Assembly: GCA_020137815.1 (NCBI GenBank) | Contig: CM035359.1 | Location: forward strand, 6,200,001-6,264,000 | Direction: 5' to 3' | Origin: Hormiphora californensis | Lineage: Eukaryota; Animalia; Ctenophora | DNA length: 64,000 nucleotides | Shown: piece after piece, positions 7,203 through 58,438 of the stretch | How positions within the stretch are numbered: the stretch's first letter is position 1 | Layout of the letters: each line of letters begins with the position of its first letter | Translations under genes and position numbers: made by a program | Notes under the pieces: model-generated | What the model was told of the DNA's origin: nothing | Databases searched by the model: none | Seen by the model: the letters and a program-made list of their open reading frames with translations, nothing else

Positions 7203-8783
7203 TCTCACACAACAGACCAACTAAATATACAGTTTTGGAGTGAAATCATTCGGTCAAAACACTATACTAGGGAGAGGGAGAGAAAGAGAGAGAGAAAGAT
7301 CAGGGACACAGTTGATTGTTTGATGTTGTAAATGTGCATGCATATCTGTGGGCGTCTGTGTGTGTTTGTCTGTCTGTGTGTTTGTCCGTCTGTGTGTGTG
7401 CCACAAAATTAATATATCCGCTTTTGCTCCAATTTGCACAGTGTGCTATTTATGGTTTCTTGAACCTTCATCACACCGCTCTCTCACACACTAATATGAA
7501 AACACGGCACATTTTATTTATTTTTGCTACATATAGAAAATATCTTGTCAGTGTTATATATCTAGGGGCAGTGTGTTACAAAATGTTAGATAGTGTGTTG
7601 CATGTTCTCTTTTGGTTTTATTTAAACATAATTTGTTGCCCCAGCCCCAAAAAAGAACTTGAGTTATTCATGTTTCCCGTGTTCGTATCGCAATATGAAG
7701 AGTACAGGCACTTTTTATTAAATTTTGAACATAAATGTGAATGAGATGCTATAATCCTCCACAAGGGCGTGGGGAGAGAGAGAGAGAGGGTCGAGCCTAT
7801 CAATGGCCCTCAAGTCAAAAAAGGGACAGTTTTCTGTTCATCCTTTTAGAAGGAATAAGTAAGGGAAGCCATGATGTAACGGCACCACAGTCGGTACTAA
7901 TTAGGAATCCAGATATACACACTCACATGACCACGTAGCCACTCCAGCCGATATTTTACACGCACGCATTACGGGAATATTGATGGAGGGCGCGGAACTG
8001 TTCTTGTGAGGGGAGGAGAAAGTGTGCGCGTAGTGCAGGCCATGTAGCAGTGTGCGCGCAGCAATGACGTCACAAGGTGAGATGAGCAATTACAGTTGCA
8101 CTTGCAGCAACACTGAACTGCAGCGGCGGAATATTGCTGCTGCATCGGCTGCATACACCAGGTTGTTAGGCCTCGATGTATAATACACATTTGCATGACC
8201 TGGAATTCAACCTCAATTTTGCAGCTAGATTCCGCTGTGTTATATGAACCATGGCCATGATAGCTGTCTGGCGCCGCCAAACAGTACCTGGGTTAGCCTT
8301 GCCGTTATAGCCCTACTTTACCTTCTCATTACAGAGATTACAGAGAATAAAAACCAGTTGTGTCGTTGATCGGGCCATTAAAATTGGCAATAAATAGAAA
8401 CAAACAAACAATACAACAAAACGCATTTACACGCGATTTCCTACTACACACTACCATCAACTATCTCTCTCACACACACACACTCTTACTCTCTGTCTCT
8501 CTCTCTACACTCTCCTCTCTCACAGTATCTATCATACATACCGAAAATCGTACCCACACGGAAAGCAATAATTCTCCCGTAAAATAAACCCGGGTATCCG
8601 GATATAGAAACATATCAAAATATTGTTCAATTTCTCCTTTCACTCATCACCTCGCCTTAACCCGCCTGGCGCTTAACAATCTTCCCGCCCTGAATCTCTG
8701 AATATCAAATTAAAAACAACTAAATGTGTCTATTCAGGCGAAATACCTCCCCCGTCTCTCCATTAGCATTAACAGTTAAAGGA

Positions 8784-11700
8784 TCATACGTGACGCTCTT
8801 TGCCTTCTTCGGGTCCCCGGTAAGAACGGGCAAAATGCCAAGTTTCCAGTCCCATTTTGTTGTCGTGGCCTTCGTCAACCTTGTATAACCTGGTGAGGAG
8901 GATGGGGTTACTAATAATCGGCACTGTCTTATTGCATTCAAACTGTCTGGTGCGACCTGAGTCCTGAGAAAAACCATTTGACCAAGTATTTGAAAACCCA
9001 ATTGTCTCAACTTAGTTGTCCCTAAAACATCCCTAAAACTGGACTTACCCCCTTGTCTTTGTTGCGTCGTTTGAAGACAAAGCAGGCAATTAGTAGGATA
9101 ATTAGTAGGATAACAACGACAATTATAACGATAATTATAGGCAGGTTCTTGTTCTTGTTAACTACCACTGGTTCCTGGAGTAAAGAGGGGGATTGATTAA
9201 ACTTCACAGAACAATAACAAGTAATGGAAGTTATAGTAGAATCGCCCATCTGTGGTGTAATATCCCACTTATCCAATTCTTAGATTTAAGCCCATCTGTG
9301 GTGTAATCGTAACTATTGGGATGTGGAATTTCCACTTTACTTATCCATTTCTTTGTCTTATTACCGTGATAGGTGGTTGGGTGGTTTTGGGTGGTGTAGT
9401 GGGTGGTTTGGTAGTCACAATATCAACTCCGCTCCAATCGAAAGATTCCACGGATAGGCAGCCATCGTCAGATATTCCCTCCATTATAATGGTACCACGG
9501 CGCGGTGCTGCATTGGTTGCCACCCCAACAATATCGTCCAGATTAAATGTTACATCTGAGGGAGGGGGAATTAGATTTGGGTCAACAACACACTTTCATT
9601 TTAGAGAAACTCGAAGTAAACAGTGAAATGTGAGAAATATCTAAAACTTGATACAGTCGGACCCCGATTTAGTGGCCCCCGATTTAGTGGCACCCCGATT
9701 TAGTGGCAGGATATTTTCCCCCGATACCTATATGAAATTAACATTATTTGACCCCGATTTAGTGGCACCCCGATTTAGTGGCAGGATTTTTTTCCCGAGG
9801 ATGCCACTAAATCGGGGTCCGACTGTATAATATATTAACGGGATATTTACCTGCCATACATCCTGAGAAGACATCGTCTACGGAGATGTAGACACCCATT
9901 ATGTACTTCTGAGGGGAATCAAACCACAGCTCCTCTCCTGAAAATGAAGATTGGTTTGTGACAATCTCGGAGGAACAAAAGGAGTTGTTCTCATGGTACT
10001 GACCCCATTATTCAACAATAAAGAAGGATGGGGTTGTAACCGGGAGTTAGTGATGAGTTGTTAGTGAGAAAGAGAGAAAAGTAGATAAAATTTGAATCAC
10101 ATTAGAATGCCAAAAGAAGAATACCAGACTGATTAAAGAAAGCCAAATGCTCACCAATGGTAGAATTGATCTTGTGGAAGTAGTGTGGTTGTTCGACTCC
10201 GTTAATTATCACCAGGACTCTCCTGTTCTTTCGTAGTACGTTTATAGAGTTGCTCTTACCAATCTGTAAAGGGGGATGCAGGTTAGTAATGAGGGGGGGG
10301 GGGCACATTTAAACAGGGGGATGTTGTTGAGTAAGGGGGATGAGGGCTAGGGGTACATATTTATTTTCATTTAGTCAAATAAGTACCCAACAAATTCCGT
10401 CATTCCAGATATATCATTCAGTAAACACAATAATATTCCAATAACCCTTCTCTACCTGCATCACACACACCATCAATGACGTCACATATTTTACCTCGAT
10501 AGGAGTATCTGGAAAAGTGAGATGGATCTTCTCAAGGGTATCAACTCCAAGGGTCAGCTGCATAGTTAGGGATACAATTCCATTCACTAATTTCAGATCC
10601 CAATAGTTTTCCATCTCAGTGGTTTTACCGCCTGATACCCGGAGTAACCTGAAGAGAAAGGGGGATTAGAAGACATTTGTTAGGGGATTCAGTGCTAGAA
10701 ATAACTTGGATTAATTGGATTGGATTAATTTGGATTCTTTGTTAGAAATTGTAGCAACATTTAAAGTATTAACGATGATAACATAACTAATGAATGTTTG
10801 GTTTGGTTTGGGCCGCCAACCAACCAAACCAAACCAAACCCAAACCCAAACTAATGAATGTTAACTTACTTGGCAGACAATGTATCAGGTTTGAAGGTCA
10901 TCGTCAGCTTGTCTGCCAGGGACGGTCTGGATCTGCTCAGCTCGTATTGGAGTCCAGAGGATGTTCCAAACGAGGCCGAGGGAGCTGAGATGAGAGGACA
11001 GTGTTAGAGAGAGGGATGGAGGGAGTGGGTAACATTTAAATTGGAATATTATTGATTGGTAGAACATTTAGAGATCAAAACATGTAAATTTGATTAGCAA
11101 TTGGATGTCCTAAAAACATGAAAATTTAAAATGCTGAATCTTCAAGCGAGAGTGATTGGAACATAATAACAGGAACAGAATCCATCAGATTGAGAACAGA
11201 GGTTGGATCAATTGGGGGACATGGAAATTATTATTGGTTAGAACGGATATTGGGTGTCTTACGGCAGTATGGGACATAACAAGGGGACCGATGGTAAGTG
11301 CAGCCATACGGAGGCTTTTCCATACAATACGAGCCAGCTGGGTGTGGGGGCTGGGTTAGGGTAACCATGGTAACCATAGTAGGTGTGGGGCTGGGTTAGA
11401 GTAACCATAGGAGGTGTGGGGCGGGGTTAGGGTAACCATGGTAACCATGGTATGTGGCTTGGTAATGAAATTACCTCTCCGCAATATAATAACAGGGGTG
11501 ACTTCGTAACCAAGGTGTGAGGCTGGTTTAGGGTAACAATGGTAACAATGGTAACCATGGTAACCATAGAACAAGAAATAGTAACGCAAGAATATAAAGG
11601 ATTGTTTGAGACTGGTGAAGTTCAAAAGTAGGAAGGAGCAGATACAGAAAGTATAACAGCTGAAGCTGTGACAAAACAAAAACAGAAGTGTTTCGAGCAA

Positions 11701-14700
11701 AAGGAGCACTTACCACATTGAGGAATTTCGCAGGTATCCTGCCCATCTGAGCAATCTGAGTCGGTAATACACCAGGGTCCACTCTCACTCATGTCCGGGT
11801 TCCGGCAGTAATTCTCCCTGAGATCTGCGTACGAGTATACCTGTACGAGAGAGAGGGCAATTAATATAGGAGTCTATCTAGGGAGTAGGAGTGCCGGGTA
11901 GTTAGCACAGACGTTGGGAAATGGTTCATGTTGGGGGTTAGATAAGTAGTAGTACACCTGTTTGTAGAAGATGGGGTGGTTGGCAGATGAGGACATTGGG
12001 GACATTGGGGGTGTATTGCAGTGGTAGGGGGTAAAGTGATCTGTTGTAAGGTGGTTTTAGTAGAAATATATCACATACATACCTCTGGGTAAAAGTGGTG
12101 TTGAACTTTATCTTGGTCAGACCAGGGCAGACATGCACATCCAGATGCAGAGGTGGACTGACTACCCTCGTAGTTCAACCAGCTGCTGTACGTGGGCTTG
12201 TGTCGGCAAACAACCGCTGTGAGGGAGAGAGTGGTTAGGCGATAGTGATTAAGATAGGGTGGTTAAGAGAGAGAGAGAGTGGTTAGGCGAGGGTGGTTAG
12301 GAGAGGGTGGTTAGGATAGAAGAGAGGTAGACTAGATTAAGGAGCGACAAATATAAAACTAAGGCGAATATTTTACTTTTGATAGCTCCAAAATGAACTA
12401 TATTTAGTTGACACACTCACCAGGTGCTCTGTTATCCTCAGGAACAGATTGTGGTTCACAATACTTATTAGAATGGTCAGGTCGGTCTACCCGCATGTTC
12501 CAGTTGCGTACCTTCTGACAGAAAGACTGTTCCTCGATATTAGGGCACTTGTTCATGAAGCAGAAGTTGGGGTCCATTCTGGAGGATATTAATGATAGAA
12601 ATTAGAGTGTGAAATAATGGGTGGTGACATTGTATTGTTCATACTATTATAGGTGCAACAGCACAATGGTGACACTAATTTCTTAAAATAGCACACCCTA
12701 GACCTTAGTTACCCGGTCGACCTTAGCGCGTGCTGGCTAGGGGTAACTTCGTAACCAACCCTAGACCCTTGTGCTGTTGCACCTCCCCCACGCCCCATAA
12801 AAAATAATAGTATGAACAATACAACTTGACCCTAGTGGTGGCTGTGGACAGCTTGTAGTTGGGGGTAACACAGTTATTGGGCAACAGCATCAATATATTG
12901 AATATATTCTTATCAGGAACCGACCGAAACAAGTAAACAACCAAACAGAACTCGTTATTTAGGTCACGTGACTGGTTATCAGCCAATCAGGGACCGGTAT
13001 TTCCTAATTCTTACATTTTCATTTTCTGCGCCTCAGCGATGAGTTTAAAGAGGGTATCGGTAGCGACATCCTCCTTCATTGAGTCAAGTCCAAGGAAACA
13101 GATACCCTGTGTCTGTCTGATGTTCTCCATGTAGCCACCCTGGAGGATTGAGTAGGGGTTAGGGGTTGAGTTGCCTTGCTGGACTCCCTCTCAACAGACC
13201 CCCATTGTTGTAAAGGAGGGTTAACATTTCTTATAGCTTTTCAGTTAAAACATGATCACATTCAATTACCTTGATGCCCCAGTTAAAACATGATCACATT
13301 CAATTACCTTGATGCCCCAGTTAAAACATGTGATCACATTCAATTACCTTGATGCCCCAGTTAAAACATGTGATCACATTCAATTACCTTGATGCCCCAA
13401 CCCCTTCCTTCGTACACAATCCCAGTTTTAGCAATGTAAAAGTTACACAGGACATCACTCTCTCCAGCAGCACTGGCAGTCGCCTTCAGCTCCTTCAATT
13501 TATCCCTGGGAAAATGATGATGTGTTAGTTTCGCACGATCATCGTGAACTGATCAATGCAGCTAATAATCTAAAAACACACAACGAACAAAGTGACGTCA
13601 TGTGTAACAACGTGTAAACTGCCACACAAAGAACCTACCGGCAGTCTTTGTCGTTGACACAGTACCCTACAAACCACAAAACTAACAATGTGACGTCAAT
13701 ATAACGTCACAAGTAACCATGTGAAATTGTCAGAACTTACCGGCAGTCCTTGTCGTTGACACAGTACCCATCAGGAACATAATCAACAAAGAAAGTAGCA
13801 ACAGGGAACCCTCCCTCAATAAACTCCTTCTTGTTTAGAGGCACCACCGTGTCCCATTTCTTCTTGGGCACTATTATCAGACCTTGTCGTGGATCTGTAT
13901 AGGGAGGAGTTAGGGTATTAGTTGGGCACTATTATCAGACCTTGTCGCGGATCTGTAGCAAGGAGTTAGGTTTGGGGAAATGGATTATGTTCCAAACAAC
14001 CCTTACCGATAATCTTTGTAATGGATCTACCATCCCCATTCCCCACCCACTAGAATCCCCAACCCCCCCAATCAAATGTAAACCACTTACCAACACACTG
14101 GGGAGGGTTAAAAGTGACATCAGACCACAGCCCACTGGCCTCACAAGTCCTGGTACTTTCTCCAATCAGTTCATAACCATTGGTACACGCATACGACGCC
14201 TGGCGATAGAGAGGGGTGGTGGGGAGTTAGATATAAAGCATGAAACACAAATAAAATGTCTGATCTCGGCGTCACGAAATCACGCTACCTAGGTGCAAGT
14301 AGTGTAATAGTAGTTGATTACTTACCGTGGTTCCAAAGTCGTATGTTGTGTAGGAAACCTCCCCGTTGCTGGGACCATCCAGTTTCCCGCACCCACAGGT
14401 CCGGTACACAAACTTGGGCTTAACTTCAGCTGTGGGGGATATATTGTGTTAGTTAGCCGCTAAATGTGGGGGAGATATCGTGTTAGTTAGCCGCTAAATT
14501 ACATTGCTAGAGCATCTCTCTCCATGCCCCGGTTTGAACAAACGACCGTTAAATATCACACCACACGTAGTCAACAATCACTAGTTTTAGCGGCTAATAC
14601 TACTCGACAACTACTACTACTACTACTGGGCTCCCTTCTAAAGAGAGAAATATAACTCACGGAGTGGTTCCCAGGTAGCTAGTCGAGTGTACCCCCCAGG

Positions 14701-15636
14701 ACACCCTGGACCTTGTAGCGCATCTTGCTGGTTAGAGTTCAGATCACAGGTGAAAAGGAGACAGAAATCAGAGACTATCTCACCGTTCTGGTAACCCTGT
14801 GGAGAGGTGTGTGGTTAGAGAGGTGTGGTTAGAGAGATGTGGTTAGAGAGAAGTGGTTATGTAACTTGGGAGGGGAGAGATGTTTGGGTGGTTGCAACAT
14901 TTGACGCCCCCTGGCATGACCCTACTAAAATAGCTTCACACTTACTGATTTGATAAGATCCCTAATCGCATCCTCAGCACCAGTAGACATTCCATCAGCA
15001 TAGTTACCTAGGTAACCAACTCCAAGGGAAAACTCGCCGAATCTGTCAGAGAAGTCACCCTGAAAACAAGAGTTGTTAGTGGTGATGAAGAAGAAGATGA
15101 TTGGTAGCAACCAAATTATCCCTAGTATTTCACGCGGCCTACCATCTTCATATAGATCCAAGAGTAAAAGTCATTTATCCACATACCTGTAGGGACCAGC
15201 CACGTCCCTCGAATATAGTTCCCTCGGCAGAAACATAGAAATTGTAGATCAGATCGGAGTAGCCAGACTTCTGATTCTCGGTTTGGATTTGCCGTAACAT
15301 CAGTTTACATGATTCGTCAGCCGAACACGTTCCCCCTCCATCCCCGATTACTACATCTGTTATTCGTGTCATGGTGGGGATGGCACCTTTACTGGATTCG
15401 GAACCCCAGTCATATCTGCAAGAGGAGGGAGAGGTTCGTGGTGTGGAATGTAATTCTTGTCAGTTTTCTAGCAGCCAAACTCTCCGATCACATTCTGTTT
15501 CTAAATGCATCTGAATCATCTATCAAGTCTCTAAAATGTATGAGTTCCCTCTCTTTTTACTGTACCTGTCTATGATGGTCAGGGATGAGGCAATACCGAG
15601 TAGCAATACCAGGCTCTGTAGACTTCTGAGAATCAT
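8784..15636 (-). CDS. Type I membrane receptor: SP-PGRP-Sushi-PGRP-Kringle-LamG-stalk-TM-neurexin-like tail (about 20 exons)
   Basis: Exons are phase-compatible. SP MILRSLQSLVLLLGIASS (15636-15566). PGRP1: IIDRYDWG...SDLIYNFYVSAEGTIFEGRGW...SLGVGYLGNY...GCPG...TWEP (15415-14661). Sushi: CGKLDGPSNGEVSY...ASYACTNGYELIGESTRTCEASGLWS (14430-14090). PGRP2: IVPKKKW...DVLCNFYIAKTGIVYEGRGW...GICFLG (13895-12420). Kringle: YEGSQSTSASGCACLPW...ENYCRNPDMSESGPWC (12215-11714). LamG-like: ASFG...KLTMTFKP...WDLKLVNG...FSGCMADVTFN (10985-9460). Then TTKPPTTPPKTT stalk, TM LPIIIVIIVVVILLIILLIACFVF, and a tail ending KERHV*. Confidence 0.85.
9654..9825. mobile_element. Tc1/mariner-type MITE (family B)
   Basis: TIR CAGTCGGACCCCGATTTAGTGGC, flanked by TA on both sides, with internal CCCGATTTAGTGG repeats. 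Second copy at 59786-59955. Confidence 0.85.
12914..13010. mobile_element. MITE family A, truncated copy
   Basis: Same sequence in reverse orientation, cut off next to a splice donor of the PGRP gene. Confidence 0.8.
13242..13398 (-). repeat. 38-40-bp tandem repeat spanning a splice donor (4 copies)
   Basis: GGGGCATCAAG|GTAATTGAATGTGATCA...TTTTAACT repeated. Confidence 0.9.
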
Positions 15637-17534: not shown

Positions 17535-18031
17535 GGGGGGGAGCTAGTTAATTAGAAGGATGGCGTCATGATTGTTCCCTACAGAACCATTCTGTCACCG
17601 GGTGGTACAACCCTGCCACCACCCTACCCTGGCTCTCTCTCCAGCCTCTCTCTCTCTCTCTCTCTTTCTATCCACCCCTCAGTCCTGACTCTCCCCTACC
17701 CTGGCTCTCCCTCCAGCCCCTCTCTCTCTTCTTCTATCCACCCCTCAGTCCTGACTCTCCCCTACCCTGGCTCTCCCTCCAGCCCCTCTCTCTTCTTCTA
17801 TCCACCCCTCAGTCCTGACTCTCCTCCCACGCTGGTGACAGCTAAACAAGCATGAGGGAGACACTGCAGGACACACCCAGTCAGTATAATAGTAGTACGA
17901 TGGGGTCATTGAAATTAGTCAGAATAGCCTGTCAGGGTGGACCAAGCACTTGCGGGTTTGGCAGACAAGACACAACGATGTATCGAGGGATGGGGGCTAG
18001 AGAATCGTTTGGCAATCACCATGGGTTAAAA

Positions 18032-19359
18032 CGGGAAACACCGAATTTCGGTTTGGTTCGGTTCGGTTCGGAAAATTTGGTGTTTTTTGGGGGTTTGGTT
18101 TCGGTTCGGTTTGGTAGGGAAATTTTTGGGGCCCAACCACCCAAATTTTTTTTGGGCAAAAAAATGGGCCCGAAATCCCGGGGGGGTTTTTCACAAAATT
18201 TTTCAATTATTTTACGAAAATTGTTGGATTTTAAATTTAATTTCGCCGTATTAAACCCTTTCGAATCGGGGGTGCTATGTGGGAAAAGTTTTTCCCATTA
18301 CGGTTCGATATGGATTGATTTTTATACCTGACTTCCCTCGAATCGTGTCCCATGAGGGGTTAACAAATTCGAAAATTTTTTTTTTCAAAAATTTATGGGG
18401 AGCACCGATCAAGGTGTTTTTGAATCTTTTCTCTGAAATTTTGTAAAAAAATTTTTGGAAAAAATTTCAAATCAATTTTGGGAAAAATTTTCATTCAATT
18501 TTTCTCAACGTGTTTTGAACGGGATTTCTAAGCGGGAGTGATGTTGCTTTATTGTGGGGCCGGATGTTTTGCTGAACGTGATCCCCCCCTCAAACTAATT
18601 GGAAGTTTGGGGGAAAAATTCATGTTTCAATAAATCCTCTAATTAGCGGAACACTGCCGCAAGCATCACCCTTCGCAACACACGTACGGCAAAAATTTAC
18701 ATAAATTTTTTTTTCCGAAATTGCTTTGAAAAATTTTACAAAGTTTTTTCACAAAATTAAATTTTCTCTAAAAATTTATGGAGAGCATCGTCAAGGTTTG
18801 AGAATCTTACCTGAAAATTTTTTGGAAATTTTTTTTTTTGAAAAAAAAAATTTTTGGTAAAACGATTCTGTTTTTAAATCGACAATGCTAAACGGATATG
18901 TTGGTAATTCGTGGTCCGAGATGGATTGTGCTGATACGTGATCCCCCATCAAATCTAATTAGGAAATTTAGAGAGACACGATTCATGGTTCGTTTAATCC
19001 TGCTAATTAGCAATACCATTCCCGTATAGCATTGCCGATTCGCAACACGATTCGTACCGCAAAAATTGACATAGAAAAATTTACGATAAAATTGACTTTG
19101 AAAATTTTTTCACAAAATTGACTTTGAAATTTTTTCAAACATTTTTTAACAAAATTTCAGAGAATGATTCTCAATACCTTGATCGGTGCTCTCCATGACT
19201 TTTTAGAGAAACATTTATATAGAAAAAGTTTTGTATGGTTCGGTTCGGTTCGGTTACCGAAATTCGGTTCGGTTCGGTTCGGTTCGGTTCGGTAAAAAAG
19301 TTTTTCAAATTCGGTTCGGTTCGGTTCGGTGGAAAAAAACCCGGTTCGGTCGTTTCCTG
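18032..19359. mobile_element. Non-autonomous hAT-like element with (TTCGG)n subterminal arrays
   Basis: Right TIR TTCGGTCGTTTCCTG is related to MITE A. The left end is noisy. Both flanks read GTTAAAA(A)C. Internal duplicated block of about 360 bp. Confidence 0.65.
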
Positions 19360-20389
19360 GTTAAAAACAAGGACCAACAATTCGTGAGCCCTGGATTGAA
19401 AAGGTAGAATTCTAACTCATACTGTGTTCTAATACTAACATCAAATTTAATTAAAAGAGGACATGTTCTAGATCTCACGTGACTACTTGATTAAGATTGG
19501 GTAGACTTGTGTGAAAACAGGGGGAATTAAATAGGGGCCCCGGGTCAGATGTACAGTGTGGATTGCCATGGGGGCTGCTGCTGTTAGACACTAATTGAAA
19601 CGGTAGTAGGCGACCTGCTGCACACAGGTGGCTCACGCATCCAAACTACTAAATCTGATCGCAAGAAAATGATCCTATCTGACCAAGAAACAGTAAACTT
19701 TTCCGAAATGAAACAGGTTATTTAAGAGGGCTCCTGGGCTGTGGAGTATAACAAGTTCTGAACTGGAATAAAAGCGTTACAGTTGGAAGTAGAGAGGTGG
19801 AACAAGAATCGGATCAGCATTTCCGGAAGCTATCAACTGAGAGATAGAAAGATAGAGGGAGGGAGAGATGGAGAGAGAGAAAGTGAGGCTGAGAGATCTA
19901 AGGCGGAAGGTAATAAACCGTTTGACCACTGACTGATCGTTGGCCACAACAATGAGTAGCGACACAAAAAGAAAAAAGGAAAAACAAAAAAGGGAGAGGG
20001 AGAGAACGAGGAGAAAAAATGGAGAGAGAGAGGGAGAGAGAGAGCGAGAGGGCCGAGCGAGATAGAGAGATGAGAGAGAGCGAGAGATAGAGAGAGAGCG
20101 GAAGAGAGAGAGCTATCGTGCAGCGTCATAGATCTTATATCATCTCTCTCTATATACTATAGAGATTATATCCTATATATATCTCTCTATCTCTCTCTCT
20201 ATAGCTCCTATCTCTCTCTCTCTTCTCTTCTCTCTCTCTCTCTCTCTCTCCTCTCTCTCCTCGCATACCACAGTTCACACTGATCACGTGACAAGCTTAC
20301 TGTAAACCGCACCGTTACTACTTGGTCACGTGACTGATTGGGGGACGTGCAAGGCATTAGCACGCTGCTGGCACACGATTCACACAGAA

Positions 20390-20432
<43 letters not shown>

Positions 20433-20479
20433 AAGGAGAGCGAAGGTGAGTGAGGAGAGAGAAAAGAGAGAGAGACCTA

Positions 20480-22659
20480 TGGTCATTCTTTTTTAAAGGG
20501 CAAAAATTTTTCCGGAAAATGACCCATAAGTTCAGTTTTTCGACTTTTACATAGTTTGTTCAAAAAAATATTTGTTCAACGAACATTATGGGTAAAAGTG
20601 TATAGGGAATAGAGTTACAGGCCAAAAAAAAATAATAAATTAAAAACTCATCTCGTGAGTGCGTTTGACCATGTTTGCAAAAGCGTGTGCCATCGTTCAA
20701 ATTTAATATTTTTCCTAAAATTTCGAAAATATGCTGAAAAAGTCAATATAAACACCTTTAAAATATGAAGCAAACTTACTCAATCTTGAGTGCAACCGGT
20801 TTTTTTGTTAAAAGTTACACTGTATACTTTACAGTACTTTTAAGCCCGCCGTTAGCACCTCAGTTTTCACGACTTTTGTCCCATAGCTAGATACTTGCAG
20901 TTAGACTCAAAAACAATTCATTTGTACCAAAAAGTTACAAAAATTTGCTCAGGAGTGAGGTGCACCAAAAAACTGTATTTTCTTCAAACGGGGGGGGGCT
21001 AATTGCACCCTCAATCAGTGAGTATATGTTCTAAAAAGTGGCCTAATTTGCTCATATGACATCCCCAAAACTACCTAAATCGATCAACGGTCATTGCTCA
21101 ACCTGTGAGGTGCCCCACGGAGAAGTAGGGTAAAAATGTCATTTTTTGAGGGTCTGCACCTCACTAGTAGTAATTTTTAGGGCCAATTTTAGGTTTAAAT
21201 CAGGAGGGGGACTGTCAACTTGCTTATGGCAAGTTTCATATTCTTTATTTACTTCATTTGACCCCTAGTGAGTAAACTTTTAGCTCTAAAAAAAAAAACC
21301 AATTTTTTTTCCCGGGGGGCCTTGCACCTCACCAAATGAGTAACTTTCAGGTTTTCACCTCATTGATGAGTGAGAAATATCCCCACCATTTCCCTGGAAA
21401 GTTCTGGAGATTTTTGATCAACGGTATTTCTAAAATCGGGGGGCACCCTACGATAGCAACTCACGGCGTTAGAAAATGTCTATGACCTCACTGGCGAAGC
21501 TAGAGACTTCGTTCTTTCAAAATAGTAAACCCGTTCGCCATAACGGCGCGAGGCGACTTCTCGGGGAAAGGAAATGGTATGTTTTGGTCGCTGGAAAGGG
21601 AACCACTGAATCATCAGTCTAACTAATGACATGCACTATCCCATCTTAAGTAACGGTACCTTAGAAGGAGCTCAGGCGGGATCGCTGCGAGTTTTCTGGT
21701 TTCAGAACGTCCAATGATGATCCGGCGATCAAAGTTTATAAAAGAACTTACTATTTCGTCTGCTGCAGTATTCATCTGCCTTAATCTCTGAGATTGATCA
21801 TCGGTTCTGTTTAACCTCTAACGTCTTGTTCGTTCTCTCTGCACTTCTTTTGGTGATGCTGCATTTGAACCCCTCAGTGTATGGAAAAGTAGAGAATAGC
21901 GGTGAGATCTTGCGTGAATAACTCCAATTGTCGCTGTCGTATATCAAGAGTTGTTGAAGAGAGCATATAATTAGCTGGAACAGTGAAACAGACTAAAGCA
22001 AGATCAAATGCACGTGCACGTGCAGTATAACAGTAGCAACCATGCCATTGGCAACGGCTCCGACTCCTGGCCCCACTCCAATAGTACTCCACAGTTCACC
22101 TCTAGGCTCTTAAATGGTGTGAAAAAAACTAATTCTTCTGCAACCATTAAAAACGGATAGAAGGCTCAGGCATGCTTGCTTTCAAACTCCAATGTGACGG
22201 CATCATGTAAAAGAAATATTTATACATTGCCAATTTTTGAGGGATTGACCTCATCGCGGGAAATTAGCTTTTGTTCCAAGGTTTTAATCTGTTTTTAACC
22301 CCAAGTTTAAATAATTATCTTAAACCCTGTAAAGGGAAACTTTACTAAAAATGGGCTTGCAACTCAAAGGGTTAAAAGGTTTTAACTATGTGAAGTGAAA
22401 AACCCCAAACCATTTCTGAAGTTTGGAGTTTTTTATCAAACGGATATTCAACGGGGCCCTCCACAATAGCCCCCACCGCTTAAAGGCTTAACCCTCAGCC
22501 TAGAAAAGGTAAACCGTTCTATTTCCAAAATTGCTTTTAAATATTTTAAATTTTTAATTTCTGATTTTTAGGGGGCTAGAAATTTCCAGTGGCCACAGCT
22601 ATTTTGCTATGATCATTTGAAAAAATTTGGTAGTTGCACAAGTTAAAAAAAAATGACCA
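20480..22659. mobile_element. Putative TA-flanked DNA transposon remnant
   Basis: Ends TA|TGGTCATT(C)TTTTTTAA and TTAAAAAAAAATGACCA|TA. The interior is noisy and has no recognisable transposase. Confidence 0.45.
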
Positions 22660-24839: not shown

Positions 24840-26846
24840 CTCAGCATTATATCAGTACTATAGAATCATTCGATCAAAGTATACACACCACTCTCAAGCA
24901 TACTAATAATATCAGTATCTTAAATTTGAATCTAGACGCACTAGTAAAAACACGGAGCAGTAGTCAGAACAATGAGTTTTCTGACCGTGACAATGTCGAT
25001 CTGATCACAATCTCGCGAGACTAAACAGGGGTGCAGACAACGAATAAGGGCGAGGGTATAATGGCCAAACAATAAACTGTCTCATACTGCAGCAGTACGT
25101 CACAATGGAGTTACAATATCATTCTTATCTAAGACAAATTGATAACACAGGGTGCCCCCCTGTACCAAGAAAGGGGAGGGGTGTGATGATGTAATTCTGG
25201 GTGCTATGACGTCACCCTGGGTGCTATTACGTCACCAAGTGTATCACCATGGTGATATCATCAGAATTCAGAGCATCAAAGTAGTCAGCAAGGATACTGA
25301 TTGGCAACCCAAAAGGTCGATGATAATCAATACTGCAATGCTACAAGTGACTGCAAAATATTTCTTCAAAAAGCACGCCAACACACATCTGCTGCTACAG
25401 ATCAATAGATCGTCCAGTGTTTCCTTCACACAAAGCTACACACAGATCACGATCCATGTTCCCTACATGTGTGTTATTTGATAGGCCCGCCACCTGTGCC
25501 ATGAGTTAACCCAGTTAGTGAGGGAGAGAGAGACGTTGTAACCTGATCCAAACACCACCAATCAGAACTTCTCGTTGAGATCACGTGATAAAATGCAGCC
25601 CTCTGATTGGCTGGTCAAAGCTCACTGGCAGCTAATCAGGAACCTGGATTTGGAGCACTTGACAACAACAGCCAATAAGAAGACTTGAATCTGATCACGT
25701 GACGGTGGTTAGCCAATGGGAAGGCTGCATTTTGGCCACATGAAAGATAGCGGGTTTGAATGCTGAGAATGGGATGGGTAATTGGGTGTGAAGGATTCAG
25801 GGGGGACCGCACTGGACCAGGAATAGAAATGATGGACCCGAGTTATTTTACCAGCACTGTAAAATGACTCCAGACTCATTTATTTACCGCGTTGGATATG
25901 ATACTACTGGTAAAAACAGGACTGAGGAGTGAGGACGCAATATGGCTTTAGGAAAGTAAATGAGAGTTTGAAATCTCTACCACTCATTCCGGAATGAACC
26001 AAAAATTAAGGAGTTTAATCGATTTGGAATCATTCTGCCAACGGAATTATAGAATCGGGGTAAATAAATTATAGAATCGGGGTCTTAAATCGTAGAGGGA
26101 AAGACTATGGTAGATCTCGAATGACAAATGAATAACGGTATTTCTAAAAAATTTTAAAAAACCCCCCTTAAAAGGAAAAGGGGGTTTTCTGTTGAAAATT
26201 TTTAAAATAAAAAAAATTAAAAAAGAAAAAAATTTTTAAGTTTGAAAAAAGAAAAAATTTATAAGCTTAAAAGGAAGTTTTTTTGAAAACGGAAAGGGGA
26301 CGGTGGGTAAAAAAAAAAGAAACAAAAAATTAAAAAGGCGGCCGGGGGAAAAGGGGTTTGGCCCAATTGCGGAATCCCCCCCCCCCGGAAAAACATTTCG
26401 GGGGTTTAAACCCTGGAAATGGTGGGTCTGACATGACTTTCTTTCTCCCCCCTAGGATCCACGGGGGGTTTTTTGGGGGTTTTTAAAAAGAAAAAATATT
26501 ACCCCACATAAGTTTCCCCTTTTCAAGAAAATGATTTTAAGCAGTTTTTAAAAAAAAAAGGGGGGGGGGAAAAAAACGGGGAAAAACCCTTCTTTTTTTT
26601 TCTTCTTTTCAATCCCCTTTTTTTCCCCCCCCCTTTTTAATAAAAAATTTCCGGGGGCCCCGGGAAATTATTTTTTCCCCCAAAAAAGGGGGTGGGGGGG
26701 GAGAAAAAGGGGGGGAAAAAAACCCCAGAATTTTGGAAAAAAAGGGGTAATTTTTTGGGGGGCCCTGCCCCCTTTGGGTCCCCGGGGGGGGGTCTTAAAA
26801 TTTAAAAGGGGGATGGTTCTCCTGGGGGTTCCCCCATAAAATACCT

Positions 26847-26903
<57 letters not shown>

Positions 26904-26906
26904 AAA

Positions 26907-26976
<70 letters not shown>

Positions 26977-28364
26977 TTTTTTTTTTTTTTTTTTCCCCCC
27001 CCCCCCCCCCCCGGGGGCGGGATTGTAAAAAACCCCCTCCCGTTTTAAGGCCCCCCCCAAAATTTTTAAAGGGGGGGGGGGGGGGGGGGGGAGAGGGGGG
27101 AAAGGGGGGAGAGAGGGAACCCCTGGTATGAAATAACGTGAAAAAGGGCTCAACCATTTAATGGGTTCGGGCATGGTAAATTCAAGCTTGGAAGAAAACA
27201 ATTAGAATTTTGCAAAGAGCGAAAACTCCAAAACCCCATCTCTTATCTCTTTACTCCTTACTCCCCCTTTTATCTCTATCTCTCTCCTCTTCCTTTACTT
27301 TCTTTTCTCTAAACCCTTCCTCCCTTCCCAAAACTTGTACAATCCCTATTTTTTTCATTTTAAAAAAAAAATTTAAAAAAAAATGCATAAAAATTTTTTG
27401 GGGGGGGGGGCCCCCCCGGGGGGGGGGGGGGGGGGGAGGAGAAAGGGGAGGGGGGGAAATTTTTCCTCCTTTTTTCAGTATAGGTTCCCATAATCCCCGG
27501 GGGGGGCCAGTCCAGCAGTAAGAGAACCCATAATGACCAAGTTCAAAGTTCAAACCCGGGACGCAGTGAGAGAAAGTCAAACACGAACTTTAATAAAAAG
27601 GGAAACAAGACAAAATTTAAAAGTTTCAAACATGAAGTTGACAGAATACAGAACTAAATCTAACAGGGATCTCACTAAGAGGACCATTTTTGACACACAA
27701 AGTGTCACCGATCGCGAGTGTGCTGCTGAGTGTGGGACAGTTAAAAAACTTTTAACTTCCATTAGGGGGCAGAGGGGGCTCACAAGAGAGAGGAGAGAGA
27801 GAGAGGAGGGAAAACGGGAAGAAAGACAGGGGTAAAAAGAGAGGGGGAGAGAGGGGAAATGAAAAAGAAATATCAAAAAAGGGGGCAAAAGGTAGACCGC
27901 TGGGTGCCAAAATGATAATCTACTGCACTAATCACACTAAACCCCCCGGTACCAGTGTGACACTGGTTCATTGCCCTCAGTAACATCCACCAAATCGAGA
28001 GAGAACTGTCTGGCGCCGCAAGACAGACACAAAAAAGGTTCAGAGAACAGAGAATTTAAAATAAACTAGGATGAGAGTAATTGTTGGAGCGCTAACACAG
28101 TCCAAGGTAAACATCTCATTGTGCGTACATTGACGCCCCTCTCTGAATACATCGGTTTTATAAACTTGATTGGTCACCACCCACCCTCTCTCTATTTATG
28201 TCTCTCTCTCTCTCTCTCTCTCTTCAACTCTCTCACTAACTATTTCTCAGTGAGTCTCTCTAAGATGGCTTCTCCCTCTTTATCTCTCATAGACCATTTT
28301 AATAGTGTTTATGTTGGACCTGCTAAACATCATAAACAGCTTCACCTTAGCAAAATTTATTGAG

Positions 28365-28815
28365 CCACTTTCCATCTCAAACCACTCTCCATCTCAAACC
28401 ACTCTCCATCTCAAACCACTCTCCATCTCAAACCACTCTCCATCTCAAACCACTCTCCATCACAAACCACTGTCCATCTCAAACCACGCTCCATCTCAAA
28501 CCACTCTCCATCTCAAACCACTCTCCATCTCAAACCACGATCCATCTCAAACCACTCTCCATCTCAAACCACTGTCCATCTCAAACCACTCTCCATCTCA
28601 AACCACTCTCCATCTCAAACCACTCTCCGTCTCAAACCACTCTCCATCTCAAACCACTCTCCATCTCAAATCACTCTCCATCTCAAACCACTTTCCATCT
28701 CAAACCACTTTCCATCTCAAACCACTCCCAATCCCAAACCACTTTCCATCTAAAACCACTCTCCATCTAAAACCACACTCCATCTCAAACCACTCTCCAT
28801 CTCAAACCACTCTCC
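28365..28815. repeat. 17-bp minisatellite (CCACTCTCCATCTCAAA)n
   Basis: About 26 copies; explains the HLKPLSISNHSPSQTT ORFs. Confidence 0.95.
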
Positions 28816-29016
28816 TCTTCTTCTCGAGATCTCAACAATTCAGAATATGGGTGTTGTCTTTTCCTTTTTCCCCAAATTGGGGGTATTGTAAATTAAAAGA
28901 AAAATGAAAAATTTGGGCCCCCCCAACAGAGAGAGAGAGAGCGAGCAAAAGGAGAGAGAGAGATGACGGATGGACAAAGGTAAAAGTAAAACATGGTTCC
29001 AATCATTGCTGAGACA

Positions 29017-41336: not shown

Positions 41337-44300
41337 CTAATCTTCAATTTTATATATTACAGGGGTGACATCAGCAGCATCTTCAGGAGGGACATCAGCA
41401 GCATCTTCAGCAGGGACATCAGGAGGGAGATCGGGAAAATCTTCAGCAGCATCTTCAGGGGGGAGATCGGGAAAATCTTCAGGAGCGAAATCAGGAGCAT
41501 CTTCATAAGCATCATTAGAAACATCTTCAGGAGGATCTTCAGGAGCGATATTAGGCGCAACATCACGAGCGCCATCAGCATTTTGGACACGTTTAAAGTA
41601 GTTCCAAATCGTTGTTACTACACCACTGTACAAAACGGGATTCAGTACAGAATTGAGGGGGAGAATGTTAAGGGAGAAGATCTGGTACCACGGTGACATA
41701 TCCACAACCTCAGCTGTGTGGAGGACGCAGCAGATCAGGAAGGGCATCCAGCAGCAAAAGTCAGTTAGGCAGATCAAAGAGACATTGCAATTGAGCGAGT
41801 TGTCGGACGTCCTGGTACTTTGGATATGCGATCTTCTAACGAGTACTGCAATCATCCCATGGCATATCGCTACACATAAAAAACAGAGAAAATGGAAGGT
41901 GAGGTATGCCCATACGAAAAGAACTTGTGGGTCATCTGAAAGGACAAATGCCTTAAACATACACACTGGGTCGTTACCGTAGAAAGACAGCCTTTTGCCC
42001 ATTACCGGATCATAATCCTGGGAAAACATCTCAGAAATCATTACTTGATATGTGTTCCAAGACACAGTGTTGCCGGACCGACTTCGTCTGGTTTCGTGGC
42101 TTCCATGGTAACCCCGAACAATCTTCAGCAGTTGACTTTTATCCATCACTCCAAGAAATAGTGTAAAGCCTCTTTCAAAAACTAGTCCATTGACAAACCA
42201 TTCATTGAAAGTATCGAACAATGGAAAAGTAGATACTGCTAGAGATATCAATGTGACTACTGCAAGAAGTACACCTAATTGTTTCTTTAGCTTCAGAGTA
42301 ACCTTCTTTGAACGGCGGTATCGAAGGGCCATTACTGTACCATGGAGTCGGAAGCAGCTTACGAAAGCCATCACAAGGGAAGAAATAGATGACCCAACGC
42401 TATTCAAAATCCCAATAATGGTACAAGGGGCTCCACTAATCCATTCAATTTGATACTCACAGAACCCGGAACCGTGGATCCAGTGGATTGTAGTTAGGGT
42501 AAGGAGATAAACAGATGTCAGTAGATCTCCCAACGAAATCATCAGGACCATGGCTTGATTGATTAATTCGCCACTCTTTTCCGACTTCTGTTTGATGTTC
42601 CGAATAAGTCCCCCAACTCCAAAAACGAATCCTGTAGTTCCCATGACAAAGGCAACTCCCAAAATTGCATCAGCGCTAACGGCTTTCCTCCTACAACTCT
42701 CATTACATTCATCAGAGAAGTCTTTGCAGTCAATCTTTCCATCACACTTCTGACTCAAAGCCAAGAACCCAGACTTATCAGAACACTGGAAGTTGTTCAT
42801 ACATTCCTCCTCATCGGACCCGTCTCCACAGTCATCGACAAGATCACACACCTTCTCAAACAGGACGCAGTATGTGTTTTTACAAACAAAAAAGTTGTTT
42901 TGGAACCGTTCGCGAGACTTTTGTACAATGGTAATTGAGCCAAGCTCGAAGTTGAGAGAATAAAAGGTGTTTCTGAGGTTGCTACAAGTGTTATGAAGGA
43001 CCGGTCTTTTCAAGGGACACGGTATGTTGTAACAAAGACCTAAACAGCTGTAAAACACATATGCTTCACCGTACAGGTACCTACAATCACGTTCCGTAGT
43101 TGGAAATACTAACTTGGTTGTAAAGTTTTTACCAAAGAACAGATGAAAGGGATGATGGAACGTTTTAGATTGACAAGTTTGGTCTGTTAGAAAAAGGATA
43201 GACTGAAGGCCTTTTGTACAAACTGAACTCCTGAGTTTTATTCCTACTGATAGGCTGCTGCTTAGCATCTTTTTGGATATCTGTGGCCTGCTTTTAGCCA
43301 TGCGGCACACTTCTTCGTCACAGTTTGAGGGAAAGGAACATAAAAGGGTGGCTTCTAAAAATTGTCCTATGTTATTTTTGCAGAGGAAGACATTGGTACA
43401 TTTATTAGTCGAGTATCTAATTGTCCTCCTGATGCCTTTGCCGCACGTTTGCCAGTTAGCCTTTTCATCTATCCCGTCAAGGCAGTCTACCTCTCCATCC
43501 TGGACCCAGTCCACTGGAATCCTAAGAAGACCCTGATTTTGGCTAAAACTACGAACACACGATCGTTGGGTGAGCCTAAGACACGTCGCCTTCTGCTCAT
43601 CCGCACCCATAGCACAGTCATCTTGCCCATTGCATAACTGATGCTTATGAATGGTGCAATACCGGTTAATCGTTGGACACTTTTTGTGCATATCATCATC
43701 ACATAACATTGAATTCTCCCAACAGAGAACATAAATGGAAACTGTAGAGAGATATCCGCCGATAAGGCACGAACCGGCAATCTTAGCTGGATCCGAACAG
43801 TTTGTCTGGTCTAAACCGTCATAACAATAAGATACGCCACCATACAGCCCATTATCAAACACATTTTTAACTGAGCGTGTTAAAGGAATGAAGCAACGTG
43901 ATGCGTTATGAAGCGGAAAATCAGTACAAGTGTTATTCCTTGTTCTGTACAGTTCAAGTAAATCGTTGAAGGGAGTAAAGACATAAACATCTTTTTGCTT
44001 AGCCACAGCCCCATAATTATATCCGTCGCAAGAACTTTCATCGATACATTTCAACATAGATGCTTCCATGTTTCCCTCCAGCTCCACTTCATCACAACGA
44101 CCGTCACACAATCCTCCTTCTTGAATGAAGATTGTAAAAATCTCGCCCTCAACGGTGGAGATGGTTTTTCTAAGTCGAGCATCACTAAAATCATGAGCAC
44201 CGGGACATGTTTGAAATGATGTGTGAAAACCGTACATATCCTTTTCATGTTCGTAACACAACTTCCCACACACGGGGGCCGTTTGGTAGAGTGTCGGATT

Positions 44301-46777
44301 TTGAAATAATCTTTCCACTTCCATCTTTACTAGACGTATTTTTTCACGCTGATTCCGAATCTGTCATTTATTTTGATCTACGACCACGTCATCCCCTGGA
44401 GACGCCCTCCTGAATGAATTGCTTGTGCGTCGCGTTGCAGTGCTGTCACTATGCGCTCTCTCGCCAATTAGCTGCGCTCGCAAATTTACACAACTGTGCC
44501 ACCTGAGCTGAGATGGATCTCAAAGAAGCTGCTCAGCGGTCAGAAATTTTGAGTTTAAACGCCAAGACAATTAAGATCCAATCCATCATCAATTGATCAT
44601 TTGCTAATGAATTGGACCTGTTGCTTGGTTCGTAATTCCAGGTTGAGTTTCAGGAAATATCGATATTTCCTGAAACTCAACCTGGGCTGGAATCACGAAC
44701 CAAACAACAGGAAAAAAGATCTAAAAGGAGAAATACCCAGTTAGACCATCTAATATAAAATCATTAGGGTGAGTAGGAAGTGCCCAATCTCATTCACTTT
44801 TAGCCGGGGTTATGTCTTCAACACGTGACAAATCACGTGCTTCGAGAAAGAGATTCGATATTTCGATTGTAAAAATGGTAGTTATTATCCGTTTGACAAC
44901 CTCAATGACGTTTGGCACTTTAAACGATTTTATCGGTTCTGAAAAGATCGATCCGCTCCAGCCCCACATAGTGTTGACTCAGCGAAACGTCCTCTCCCAT
45001 TTTCTTGCCGTTTCGCACGTGGATCAGCTTGCCTCCGGGTCCCCCAGACGAGTTCCCGTTGACGACGCTCTTACTCTGACTGCTCGAGCTATTAATTCGG
45101 AGCTTTTTGTCAATAATGGCGTTACAACAGTTTTAGAATTTAATATTAAAAAGTAAGTGGCCCTGAGTATTATACTTGTTCTTAAGTATATTAAATGTTC
45201 TCTACTACTCGCAACAGTTCTCTACTATTTCTCAGATTAAATTATTTCTATCCTTGTTTTTGCCCAGGGCTTTGAAGAAACTGTTTGACAATACCAAGAA
45301 AGCAAGTAAACGGTCATCGAATCAAAAAGCCAAGTTTGAATCTGAGTTACTCTGCAACATATTCATGTCTACCCACCCATTATTTGGCAAGCAAAAGGTA
45401 GATTTATTGCTGATTCTGAACAATTGTCTGTTTAGCTTAGTATGTTATCATCATATTGCAGTACAGGGTGTTCTACTGTCCTTGCGTGACCTGCGATTTT
45501 GAGTCTTGACGGGGCTCCATTAAATTGATCATATTTCATCAAAAAATAGGTCAAAATGGTTCTAACAAAAACAGTGTTGTAGATAATTTTCAGGCAAACA
45601 TTTTTCCTGACAATTCTCTAATCTCTATAGAGACATATATGTAACACTGTTTTTGTTAGATTAACCATTTTGACCTATTTTTCGAAGAGATATGATTAAT
45701 TTAATGGAGCCCAGTCATGAATCGTGTAGGAAAACTACAACGTCGCATGGATCAGGCAGAGGGACTTTTATAGAACATAGAGACAATTTTAACCTATTTA
45801 TGTGTAACATGCGTGACAACATGTATAATTTACAACCTGTTTTATTAAACAGATTACAGTTTTTAAAGGTCCCCCCAAACTACTATGTCCCTTGCTGCGC
45901 GCGACCGGATTTTAGACGGTCATAGCTCCACCCCCTGATAAGATAGAGACTTGAAATTTGTTTTGTGAGGAGATCATGTCGAGTTCTTCCTACAAAACAA
46001 ATTTCAAGTCTCTATCTCATCAGGGAGTGGAGTTATGACCGTGGGAAATTTTACAAAACCCGAGTGAGGGACATAGTAGTTTGGGGTGTACTTTAGCTTC
46101 TGTGAAGTTTGCTTGAGAGATGAGATTGAGATATTACTTTATTTTATGCCACCAAGTTACAAGTGTTTGTCCAGAGTTCTCGAAATTACCGAACTGAGAA
46201 GACAGCAACTCCGTTGAGATCCATCTCAGGTGACACAGCTGTGTGTAAATTTGCGAGCGCAGCTAATTGGCGAGAGAGAGCGCATAGTGACAGCACTGCA
46301 ACGCGACGCACAAGCAATTCATTCAGGAGGGCGTCTCCAGGGGAAGACGTGGTCGTAGATCAAAATAAATGACAGATTCGGAATCAGCGTGAAAAAATAC
46401 GTCTAGTAAAGATGGAAGTGGAAAGATTATTTCAAAATCCGACACTCTACCGTTTGGAAGAGGTTTTTAGCGGGATCGTACAAGGGCATATTACTGTCAC
46501 TTCCGCAAGCCTGATACTGGATAGAATCGTTAGGGCACAAATTCGTTACATAGAGTTTTATTCTTCTCGTGACGGTATCAATACTAAACTTTTTGTAGTA
46601 CACGGCGGAAGAGTTAAGACATTTCATCAAAAAGCCATCGTAGGAGATAAATGCTTTGTCTTGGCATGACCTCACCAAAAACCCATTGTCGACTGCTATC
46701 GGACACCCACCATCGTTATCACCGGAAATTCCACTAGTGACCTCAACTAGGTAACACACGAAAACAAAGAGAGTCAT
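41337..46777 (-). pseudogene. Intronless LDLa-repeat rhodopsin-class GPCR (GRL101/RXFP-like, no LRRs), interrupted by a hAT element
   Basis: 5' part 46777-46450 (signal-like MTLFVFVCYLV...NLCPND...ACG). 3' part 44278-41337 has LDLa motifs (CDLVDDCGDGSDEEEC, CDGKIDCKDFSDEC) and a 7TM (TDFCCWMP, LPLNSVLNPVLY). Removing 44287-46449 plus one TSD copy restores ...KNLFQTAPVCG... in frame (about 1089 aa). Confidence 0.88.
44287..46449 (+). mobile_element. Internally deleted hAT (hATm-like) DNA transposon with nested MITEs
   Basis: About 230-bp TIRs starting TAGAGTGTCGG. Perfect 8-bp TSD CCGTTTGG (44279-44286 and 46450-46457). A two-exon internal fragment (44875-45152 and 45268-45398: LTQRNVLSHFL...IKKALKKLFDNTKKASKRS) resembles hATm transposase N-termini as I recall them. 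Nested inverted-repeat elements at about 45512-45711 and 45870-46090. Confidence 0.88.
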
Positions 46778-58400: not shown

Positions 58401-58438
58401 AGCTCACGTTGGCACTCTCGTAACAATCAAATCCTACC
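52475..58438 (-). CDS. Multi-exon LDLa-repeat rhodopsin-class GPCR; 5' end not located
   Basis: Exons: CDGKQDCPNNEDERDC (58438-58296); CDGHRNCYDNSDEC...GLIWIMGLASLFGNVLV (57919-57723); NLASADFLMGVYL (57242-57107); WKLSSMCQLLGVLS (55440-55285); 54981-54871; 54656-54498; YYSKHGVCLPK (53457-53307); KIARLIVADFCCW (53155-53055); LLPINSSLNPLLYS (52918-52709); terminal exon to about 52475. Confidence 0.85.
53583..54506 (-). repeat. 36-bp minisatellite whose unit reads GT...AG (about 25 copies)
   Basis: Minus-strand unit GTAACCATGGTAACCAGTGTTTGTATTCCCTCCCAG fills most of GPCR intron 53458-54497. Confidence 0.95.
55567..55641. repeat. Perfect palindrome (37-bp arms, 1-nt spacer)
   Basis: GTGAGGGCGACCCCGCGTCAAAGAAATCTGTCTACAA-A-reverse complement. 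Confidence 0.9.
55647..56871. mobile_element. Insertion of a 505-bp tandem repeat with an inverted segment, bounded by a 13-bp direct repeat
   Basis: Unit starts at 55661 and 56166 (period 505). 56391-56860 is the reverse complement of the unit. CACTCTAGAATAT occurs at 55647-55659 and 56859-56871. Confidence 0.75.
57308..57521. mobile_element. MITE-like inverted repeat element
   Basis: About 55-bp TIRs GATTGAGCCATGGCTAGCCAGTCATGTAGC... Confidence 0.65.
57520..57659. repeat. Perfect 140-bp spacerless palindrome
   Basis: Centred on TTTAAT|ATTAAA; arms match exactly. Confidence 0.9.
58016..58245. mobile_element. MITE-like inverted repeat element
   Basis: TIR GTCGAATTTTTTATTTAAGCGACAGGCC and its complement; internal inverted repeats. 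Confidence 0.65.

Follow-up and report, generated by a model that had tools for sequence, protein, structure and literature searches.

A gene on the minus strand of a 64,000-nucleotide stretch of the ctenophore Hormiphora californensis (GenBank assembly GCA_020137815.1, contig CM035359.1, positions 6,200,001 to 6,264,000; the whole stretch is called the window throughout) is predicted to encode a single-pass membrane receptor in which peptidoglycan recognition protein (PGRP) domains sit on a neurexin-like membrane anchor. Eighteen GT-AG exons between 15636 and 9049, read by their coordinates, give a stop-free frame of 787 residues in which a signal peptide, a PGRP domain, a sushi domain, a second PGRP domain, a kringle, a LamG domain, a Thr/Pro stalk, a transmembrane (TM) helix and the juxtamembrane sequence KRRNKDKG follow one another (Table 1). 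On balance, we lean toward a reading in which this protein has a tail likely ending in EVFA, would bind peptidoglycan outside the cell, and is likely tethered by its neurexin-like tail to band-4.1 and PDZ scaffolds.

Gene model and homologs

An earlier first-pass annotation, made from the letters of the window, had ended a PGRP receptor in LamG, a Thr/Pro stalk, a TM helix and FKRRNKDKG. This arrangement is borne out: all of these parts share one open frame with the PGRP head, and the LamG-like domain extends from 10984 to about 9458. The sushi and kringle domains pass their Pfam cutoffs (26.1 bits against 20.7 and 41.2 bits against 34.3, respectively), and the stalk has 7 Ser/Thr and 6 Pro among 19 residues. 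Near-identical contigs from RNA run X1 join 3 of the 18 introns (14091/13894, 10154/9936 and 9851/9555), and a piece from the same run agrees with the window over 8604–8726 with 0 differences. The donor of exon 8 is present four times at a spacing of ~40 nt (13270–13388), and both ends of exon 7 are copied into the flanking introns (about 13640–13670 and about 13925–13955), repeats that would provide spare splice sites.

The closest homolog, P0001, is a gene model from the ctenophore Pleurobrachia bachei with 98% identity to the window protein over 108 residues around the stalk. A paralog, P0006 (458 residues), consists of a signal peptide, a CBM14 domain, a kringle, LamG, a stalk, a TM helix and RNKDKGVYK, ends in EHGV, and aligns to the window model at 27% identity over 364 residues (E=4e-26). 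The two LamG domains align with a score of 59, a value reached by none of 500 shuffles (30.8 ± 4.9); the P0006 domain passes Pfam Laminin_G_2, and the window domain's own Pfam match has E=0.15. Judged by homology, P0006 is the same chassis under a second predicted glycan-binding head, the chitin-binding CBM14. Among 15 representative matches, P0010, P0012, P0013 and P0014 were set aside as TM or low-complexity look-alikes; P0024 is an unrelated cluster member. A word-index search with LamG exon 14 gave 0 matches among 32 candidates, and when metagenomes were scanned with P0001, none of the 167 pattern matches proved to be a relative.

Last splice junction and C-terminal tail

The first-pass annotation had ended the protein in a frame running LYKVDE...KERHV, reached through an acceptor at 8963, or through 8889 if the G5 run at the junction were one base too long. 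This frame, with its stop at 8786–8784, does exist in the DNA, and the acceptor at 8963 does lead into it, adding 25 residues. We scored acceptors with a matrix built from the 17 other acceptors of the gene, whose leave-one-out scores range from 2.7 to 17.2. With a score of 0.4, the site at 8963 falls below all 17, and the intron that it implies (85 nt) is shorter than all 17 others (minimum 126), which argues against its being a real acceptor. The site at 8889 scores 11.4 with an intron of 159 nt. The surplus base proposed for the G5 run is not borne out: P0001, P0004 and the paralog P0006, the three homologs with sequence on both sides of the junction, all have VYK after KG, and because these read V, not L, the extra base is instead the doubled T at 8888/8887. 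As the window is written, splicing at 8889 leads to a stop after VIQG at 8877–8875.

Homologous sequences place the junction at the same point. VYK stands at the splice in all five homolog clusters that include the last exon, and the P. bachei ortholog P0001 reads KDKG-VYKVDE-ATTTKW across it. Among proteins translated from genomic read-through, P0007, P0009, P0019 and P0020 have Q directly before VYKVDEA, presumably a CAG acceptor, and in P0003, P0005, P0011 and P0015 the similarity stops immediately after KG; since these homologs break or show Q at the same point, a phase-0 intron is conserved here. A spliced contig from RNA run X2, with two 30-letter loose ends read by hand, likewise shows the junction KDKG-VYKVDE; downstream it agrees with the conserved frame in 5 of 6 residues and with the KERHV frame in 1 of 7, and it encodes LPVL with four synonymous codon changes.

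Beyond VDE, the orthologs continue with A-x-T-T-K-W, which lies in another frame of the window; that frame scores 90–213 against six orthologous tails, compared with 29–31 for the KERHV frame. The VDEA continuation is found in 4 of the 5 tail-bearing homolog clusters, GHDNK and KERHV in none of the 5. Thus the last 28 residues of the earlier model are in the wrong frame. That annotation had named the use of a different frame in cDNA as the result that would overturn it, and by this measure its KERHV part is refuted, on the evidence of homologs and not of same-species cDNA. The end EVFA occurs in 3 of the 5 clusters (P0004, P0009 and the P0007 cluster, in which a W follows, perhaps from a TGA translated as Trp), and a YxxPhi motif is kept in the window and in all 4 orthologous clusters.

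Compared with the homologs, the last exon as written in the window is too long by three separate single bases, one at 8888/8887, one within 8872–8869 and one within 8744–8740. The summed score of the exon against three homolog tails rises from −131 through 83 and 356 to 407 as 0, 1, 2 and 3 bases are removed, and the best reading with three removed ends in EVFA with a stop at 8736–8734. Only with the three bases taken as errors does the window itself reach this class II PDZ-type end. All three additions sit in runs of like bases with few substitutions nearby. Because of this, and because the window has other poor-looking, homopolymer-rich patches, assembly error appears the likelier origin of the extra bases. 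Homopolymer runs of at least 6 number 21 in positions 1–2000, 20 and 12 in the two 2-kb bins of 18001–22000, 55 in 26001–28000 and 0–7 per 2 kb elsewhere; these patches (1–2000, 18001–22000 and 26001–28000) look like poor long-read consensus.

The available part of PMC2133028 defines a class II PDZ ligand by a hydrophobic or aromatic residue at −2, often with E at −3. EVFA fits this definition: the residue at −2 is hydrophobic and that at −3 is E. KERHV has Arg at −2 and falls outside it, so that its designation as a class II ligand fails along with its frame, which no homolog uses. The general scheme that had been proposed, in which LamG, stalk, TM helix, 4.1 motif and a class II PDZ-type end stand beneath a PGRP head, is nevertheless consistent with the ortholog EVFA, which suits it better than KERHV did, and the tail of the window protein likely ends in EVFA as its orthologs do. 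A false PDZ ligand can evidently arise from a few assembly bases. We dropped two other readings of the tail: an EYFA end, obtained by removing one G at 8747/8746, since homologs show EVFA (7 of 5109 window stops fit the pattern), and VTYDPL as an immunoreceptor tyrosine-based inhibitory motif, since its −2 residue varies among homologs.

Neurexin likeness of the anchor

Several comparisons relate the anchor to neurexin. A scan with Pfam Syndecan (PF01034), which the first-pass annotation had suggested as a check, places P0001 (26.0 bits) and P0006 (27.3 bits) narrowly above the cutoff of 25.2, with the match confined to profile positions 4–49 of 64, mostly TM. Of the 13 PDB matches for P0001, the second and third are to neurexin-1 (E=0.025), aligned over the TM helix and the motif K-R-N-x-D-x-G-x-Y-x-V-D-E; together with the Pfam match this points to a juxtamembrane band-4.1 motif of the neurexin type. 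An Atlas search with P0006 residues 150–458 has neurexins as its top three clusters (score 0.91–0.92). The AlphaFold model of P0006 (mean pLDDT 35.3) was unusable.

We also compared the tail by eye with the ctenophore neurexins that supplement 14 of PMC11405698 aligns in trimmed form. All three (Hormiphora, Mnemiopsis and Beroe) have GVYK after the TM helix, YxxPhi and an end of the form E-aliphatic-aromatic-hydrophobic, and the TM helix of the Beroe protein starts with the same seven residues as that of the window protein. Again by eye, the DGxWH motif has no Trp in the window LamG, nor does it in the last LNS domain of neurexins. The three neurexins end in KRE[LI]YM in this supplement, which fits the class II definition, contrary to the statement in the available part of PMC11294457 that ctenophore neurexins have no PDZ-binding motif.

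Despite this likeness, the window protein does not belong to the neurexin family. The accessible part of PMC11294457 describes a single alpha-neurexin in ctenophores, a separate gene with broad, non-neural expression whose product has six LNS and three EGF domains, and gives no Caspr outside bilaterians; that of PMC4685580 counts one ctenophore neurexin and no neuroligin. Where a neurexin ectodomain is LNS-EGF-LNS or a short form from the alpha gene (PMC11294457, available part), the window protein has one LNS, no EGF and a head of its own. "Beta-neurexin", as the module had been called, therefore does not hold as a statement of membership. A Ser/Thr-rich stalk and a single TM helix are shared with neurexins. 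The N-terminal discoidin domain and several LNS domains of Caspr/CNTNAP proteins are absent, as are the Ser-Gly heparan sulfate sites and EFYA end of syndecans; the window protein has one SG near the stalk, a likely EVFA end and a folded ectodomain. The synaptic role once suggested for it is without support, as nothing found points to synapses.

With ctenophore alpha-neurexin (Mnemiopsis, Beroe and Hormiphora; PMC11294457 and PMC11405698, in the parts available), the window protein shares by eye a membrane-proximal LNS, a short stalk and a TM helix starting with LP, but alpha-neurexin has six LNS and three EGF domains whereas the window protein, encoded by a separate gene, combines a single LNS with a PGRP-sushi-PGRP-kringle head and has no EGF domain. 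With vertebrate beta-neurexin (PDB 8G7Y and 8G7Z) it has in common one LNS, a Thr-rich stalk, a TM helix and K-R-N-x-D-x-G-x-Y-x-V-D-E; unlike the window protein, beta-neurexin is made as a short form from the alpha gene, has no folded domain ahead of its LNS and ends in EYYV. In the tails of syndecan, glycophorin C and Caspr (PF01034), too, a TM helix is joined to a 4.1-type motif and the end is of the class II PDZ type, as is likely here, but the window protein has no Ser-Gly cluster (one SG after residue 680) and no discoidin domain. Descent of its LamG from neurexin LNS6 is plausible on these comparisons, and the protein is likely a neurexin-anchored glycan receptor.

PGRP head

Exon 2 matches amphioxus PGRP3 (4ZXM) in a PDB sequence search with E=3.4e-12, and exon 8 matches PDB PGRPs with a best E=5.5e-5, placing both domains in the Amidase_2-type PGRP family; the second domain also aligns to the first. 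Pfam Amidase_2 itself gives just 12–15 bits per single exon, and exons 4 and 7, each searched alone, had no PDB match. PGRP amidases hold zinc through two His and one Cys. His is absent from domain 1 (residues 21–185), where the VVIHH of amphioxus PGRP3 is aligned to VVIG, and from domain 2, where a Cys replaces the conserved Tyr. Because of the missing His, neither domain should be an amidase, and both are likely binding-only.

The usual PGRP receptors are non-catalytic PGRPs. Drosophila PGRP-LC, -LF and -SA and mammalian PGLYRP3/4 resemble the window protein in lacking the zinc ligands and in a membrane-bound or tandem PGRP arrangement. PGRP-LC has type II membrane topology and acts through Imd signalling; unlike it, the window protein is predicted to be type I, with sushi, kringle and LamG domains and a scaffold-binding-type tail without a signalling domain. 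Recognition PGRPs are also described in the available part of the review PMC7308585.

Proposed mechanism and significance

In the arrangement that we propose, the pair of PGRP domains would bind peptidoglycan without cutting it, and the sushi, kringle, LamG and stalk would serve as a spacer or adhesion arm that holds peptidoglycan away from the membrane. Inside the cell, the partner of the juxtamembrane motif would be a 4.1/FERM protein and that of EVFA a PDZ domain of class II, perhaps from a ctenophore CASK-like protein or from Mint, both of which exist in ctenophores according to the available part of PMC11405698. These two contacts would fix the receptor to a membrane domain, and the conserved YxxPhi might drive uptake of bound cargo. 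The LamG-stalk-TM-tail block may have arisen as a copy of the 3' end of the ctenophore alpha-neurexin gene that then came to carry different glycan-binding heads, PGRP in the window protein and CBM14 in the paralog. A bolder proposal, which we put forward tentatively as possible, is a ctenophore pattern-recognition family in which the last LNS, stalk, TM helix and tail of neurexin carry interchangeable heads and sensing is plugged into a 4.1/CASK/Mint scaffold. If so, PGRP (peptidoglycan) and CBM14 (chitin) sensing would use the scaffold that serves other animals at junctions and synapses, and would do so in a phylum where canonical immune receptors are few.

The architecture appears new although its parts are known, with EVFA a likely PDZ ligand. 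We found no description of ctenophore PGRPs or of a PGRP-kringle-LamG receptor in the literature accessible to us; the supplement of the P. bachei genome paper may show the architecture. The available part of the review PMC11359984, citing that genome paper, gives only two PGRPs for P. bachei; PGRPs are reported missing from the sponge and sea-anemone genomes that the available part of PMC7308585 lists, and the Mnemiopsis immune-repertoire paper never mentions PGRP or kringle. For bacterial detection in comb jellies, a membrane PGRP with a scaffold-binding-type tail is a concrete receptor candidate that offers peptides (EVFA, the 4.1 motif and YxxPhi) testable against ctenophore CASK-like protein and Mint. 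Were the chassis neurexin-derived, an early-branching animal lineage would have turned a synaptic-type adhesion module to immune use.

Alternative explanations

A number of findings weigh against the reading favoured here. No read of the same organism (RNA run X1 contigs) covers 8727–9460, and the introns between the second PGRP domain and the kringle and between the kringle and LamG have no joins in these contigs. No PGRP-headed homolog was found, a word-index search with PGRP exon 2 giving 0 matches among 22 candidates; the orthologous fragments are too short to show N-terminal heads. The top PDB match of P0001 is a chance hit to a cytochrome oxidase subunit with an E-value similar to that of neurexin-1. 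P0001 itself lacks the EVFA end and continues into other sequence, and the EHGV end of the paralog P0006 is not class II.

Other such findings favour particular alternatives. The one that survives best, though we consider it improbable, accepts the receptor and its EVFA tail and takes the neurexin likeness as convergent or generic, a LamG from some other LNS protein being combined with the 4.1-plus-PDZ tail design that syndecan, glycophorin C, Caspr and nectin-like proteins share. Sequence searches with LamG did miss neurexin: PDB searches with window exons 13, 14 and 15 returned it in none of the three cases, and the best match for the P0006 LamG was CSPG4 (E=0.48), with no neurexin. An Atlas search with P0001 gave no usable match, and the feature overlap of the neurexin matches of P0006 is low, 146–148 of 256 features being shared, below the 170 typical of one family. 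The Pfam Syndecan match, barely above its cutoff and mostly TM, would fit a generic design as well, and the apparently unrelated P0010, without any LamG, has KRRNKDKG followed by LY, indicating that the motif can arise independently. What tells against convergence is that the tail matches ctenophore neurexin specifically, in GVYK, YxxPhi, the aliphatic residue at −2 and the LP at the TM start, and that the DGxWH Trp is missing from LamG as from the last neurexin LNS (by eye, in the alignment as available).

It is unlikely, and more so than convergence, that the PGRP domains have degenerated and no longer bind peptidoglycan, which would leave an adhesion or matrix receptor or a binder of other glycans. 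The loss of His from both domains, the Cys in place of Tyr in the second and the low Amidase_2 scores of single exons would all suit this explanation, as would the broad, non-neural expression of ctenophore neurexin (PMC11294457, available part). Yet exon 2 is strongly PGRP-like, non-catalytic domains are what the usual receptors have, recognition PGRPs are described in PMC7308585, and the paralog P0006 bears another microbial-glycan head.

Less probable again is that the three extra bases are real, this individual carrying a truncated-tail allele that ends in VIQG or using an upstream acceptor. The remaining 2361 coding bases are frame-clean, so that errors would have to be confined to a very small patch, and the RNA match over 8604–8726 has no difference; moreover, 3 of 40 tail residues differ between the window and P. 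bachei compared with 2 of 108 upstream. Single-base additions within like-base runs, with few substitutions around them and with other homopolymer-rich patches of poor consensus in the window, speak instead for assembly error. That the protein ends in KERHV we regard as very improbable indeed: the frame exists and can be reached from 8963 or by removing one base, but none of the five homolog clusters uses it, the acceptor scores below all 17 others, and Arg at −2 does not make a class II end.

Other features of the window

Table 1 Features of the predicted receptor gene, in positions of the window
Feature	Position	Strand	Basis
Exon 1, start codon and signal-peptide-like hydrophobic stretch	15566–15636	-	N-terminal hydropathy >1.6
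PGRP domain 1, exons 2–4 (15415–15187, 15059–14946, 14796–14661)	14661–15415	-	Exon 2 PDB match
Sushi/CCP domain, exons 5–6 (14429–14326, 14199–14091)	14091–14429	-	Pfam Sushi
PGRP domain 2, exons 7–10 (13894–13741, 13505–13388, 13139–13015, 12578–12421)	12421–13894	-	Exon 8 PDB match
Kringle, exons 11–12 (12216–12083, 11840–11714)	11714–12216	-	Pfam Kringle
Single LamG/LNS domain, exons 13–17 (10984–10870, 10648–10495, 10263–10155, 9937–9851, 9555 onward)	9458–10984	-	Homology to P0006 LamG
Thr/Pro stalk (predicted O-glycosylated), end of exon 17	9365–9421	-	Composition
Transmembrane helix, exon 18 (9174–9049)	9073–9138	-	Hydropathy maximum 4.0
KRRNKDKG, first half of band-4.1-type motif, then phase-0 donor at 9048	9049–9072	-	Frame reading
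Last intron (159 nt), containing the acceptors 8963 and 8956, both unlikely to be used	8890–9048	-	Acceptor matrix
Last coding exon per homologs: VYKVDE, conserved TTKW..GILPVL block, YxxPhi (8788–8777), EVFA, stop (8736–8734)	8734–8889	-	
Stop after KERHV, frame used by no homolog	8784–8786	-	DNA frame reading
Likely 3' untranslated region	8371–8733	-	RNA run X1 contigs over 8371–8726

Two intron-free frames of 914 and 1008 residues, at 60375–63116 (plus strand) and 41340–44363 (minus strand), contain LDL-receptor class A (LDLa) repeats; the 914-residue frame also has a rhodopsin-family seven-transmembrane match, and a further LDLa fragment lies at 58249–58590 (minus strand). Together they are probably a cluster of LDLa-type G-protein-coupled receptor genes. 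A perfect inverted repeat at 55985–56860, with 407-nt arms 62 nt apart and overlapped by a second of 291 nt, is either a fold-back element or an assembly artefact. Long tandem arrays at 53521–54563 and 28293–28904, with open frames on several strands, are probably non-coding minisatellites. A Cys- and Trp-rich frame at 63552–63998 (minus strand), with no Pfam match at E 0.001, resembles thrombospondin type 1 repeats by eye.

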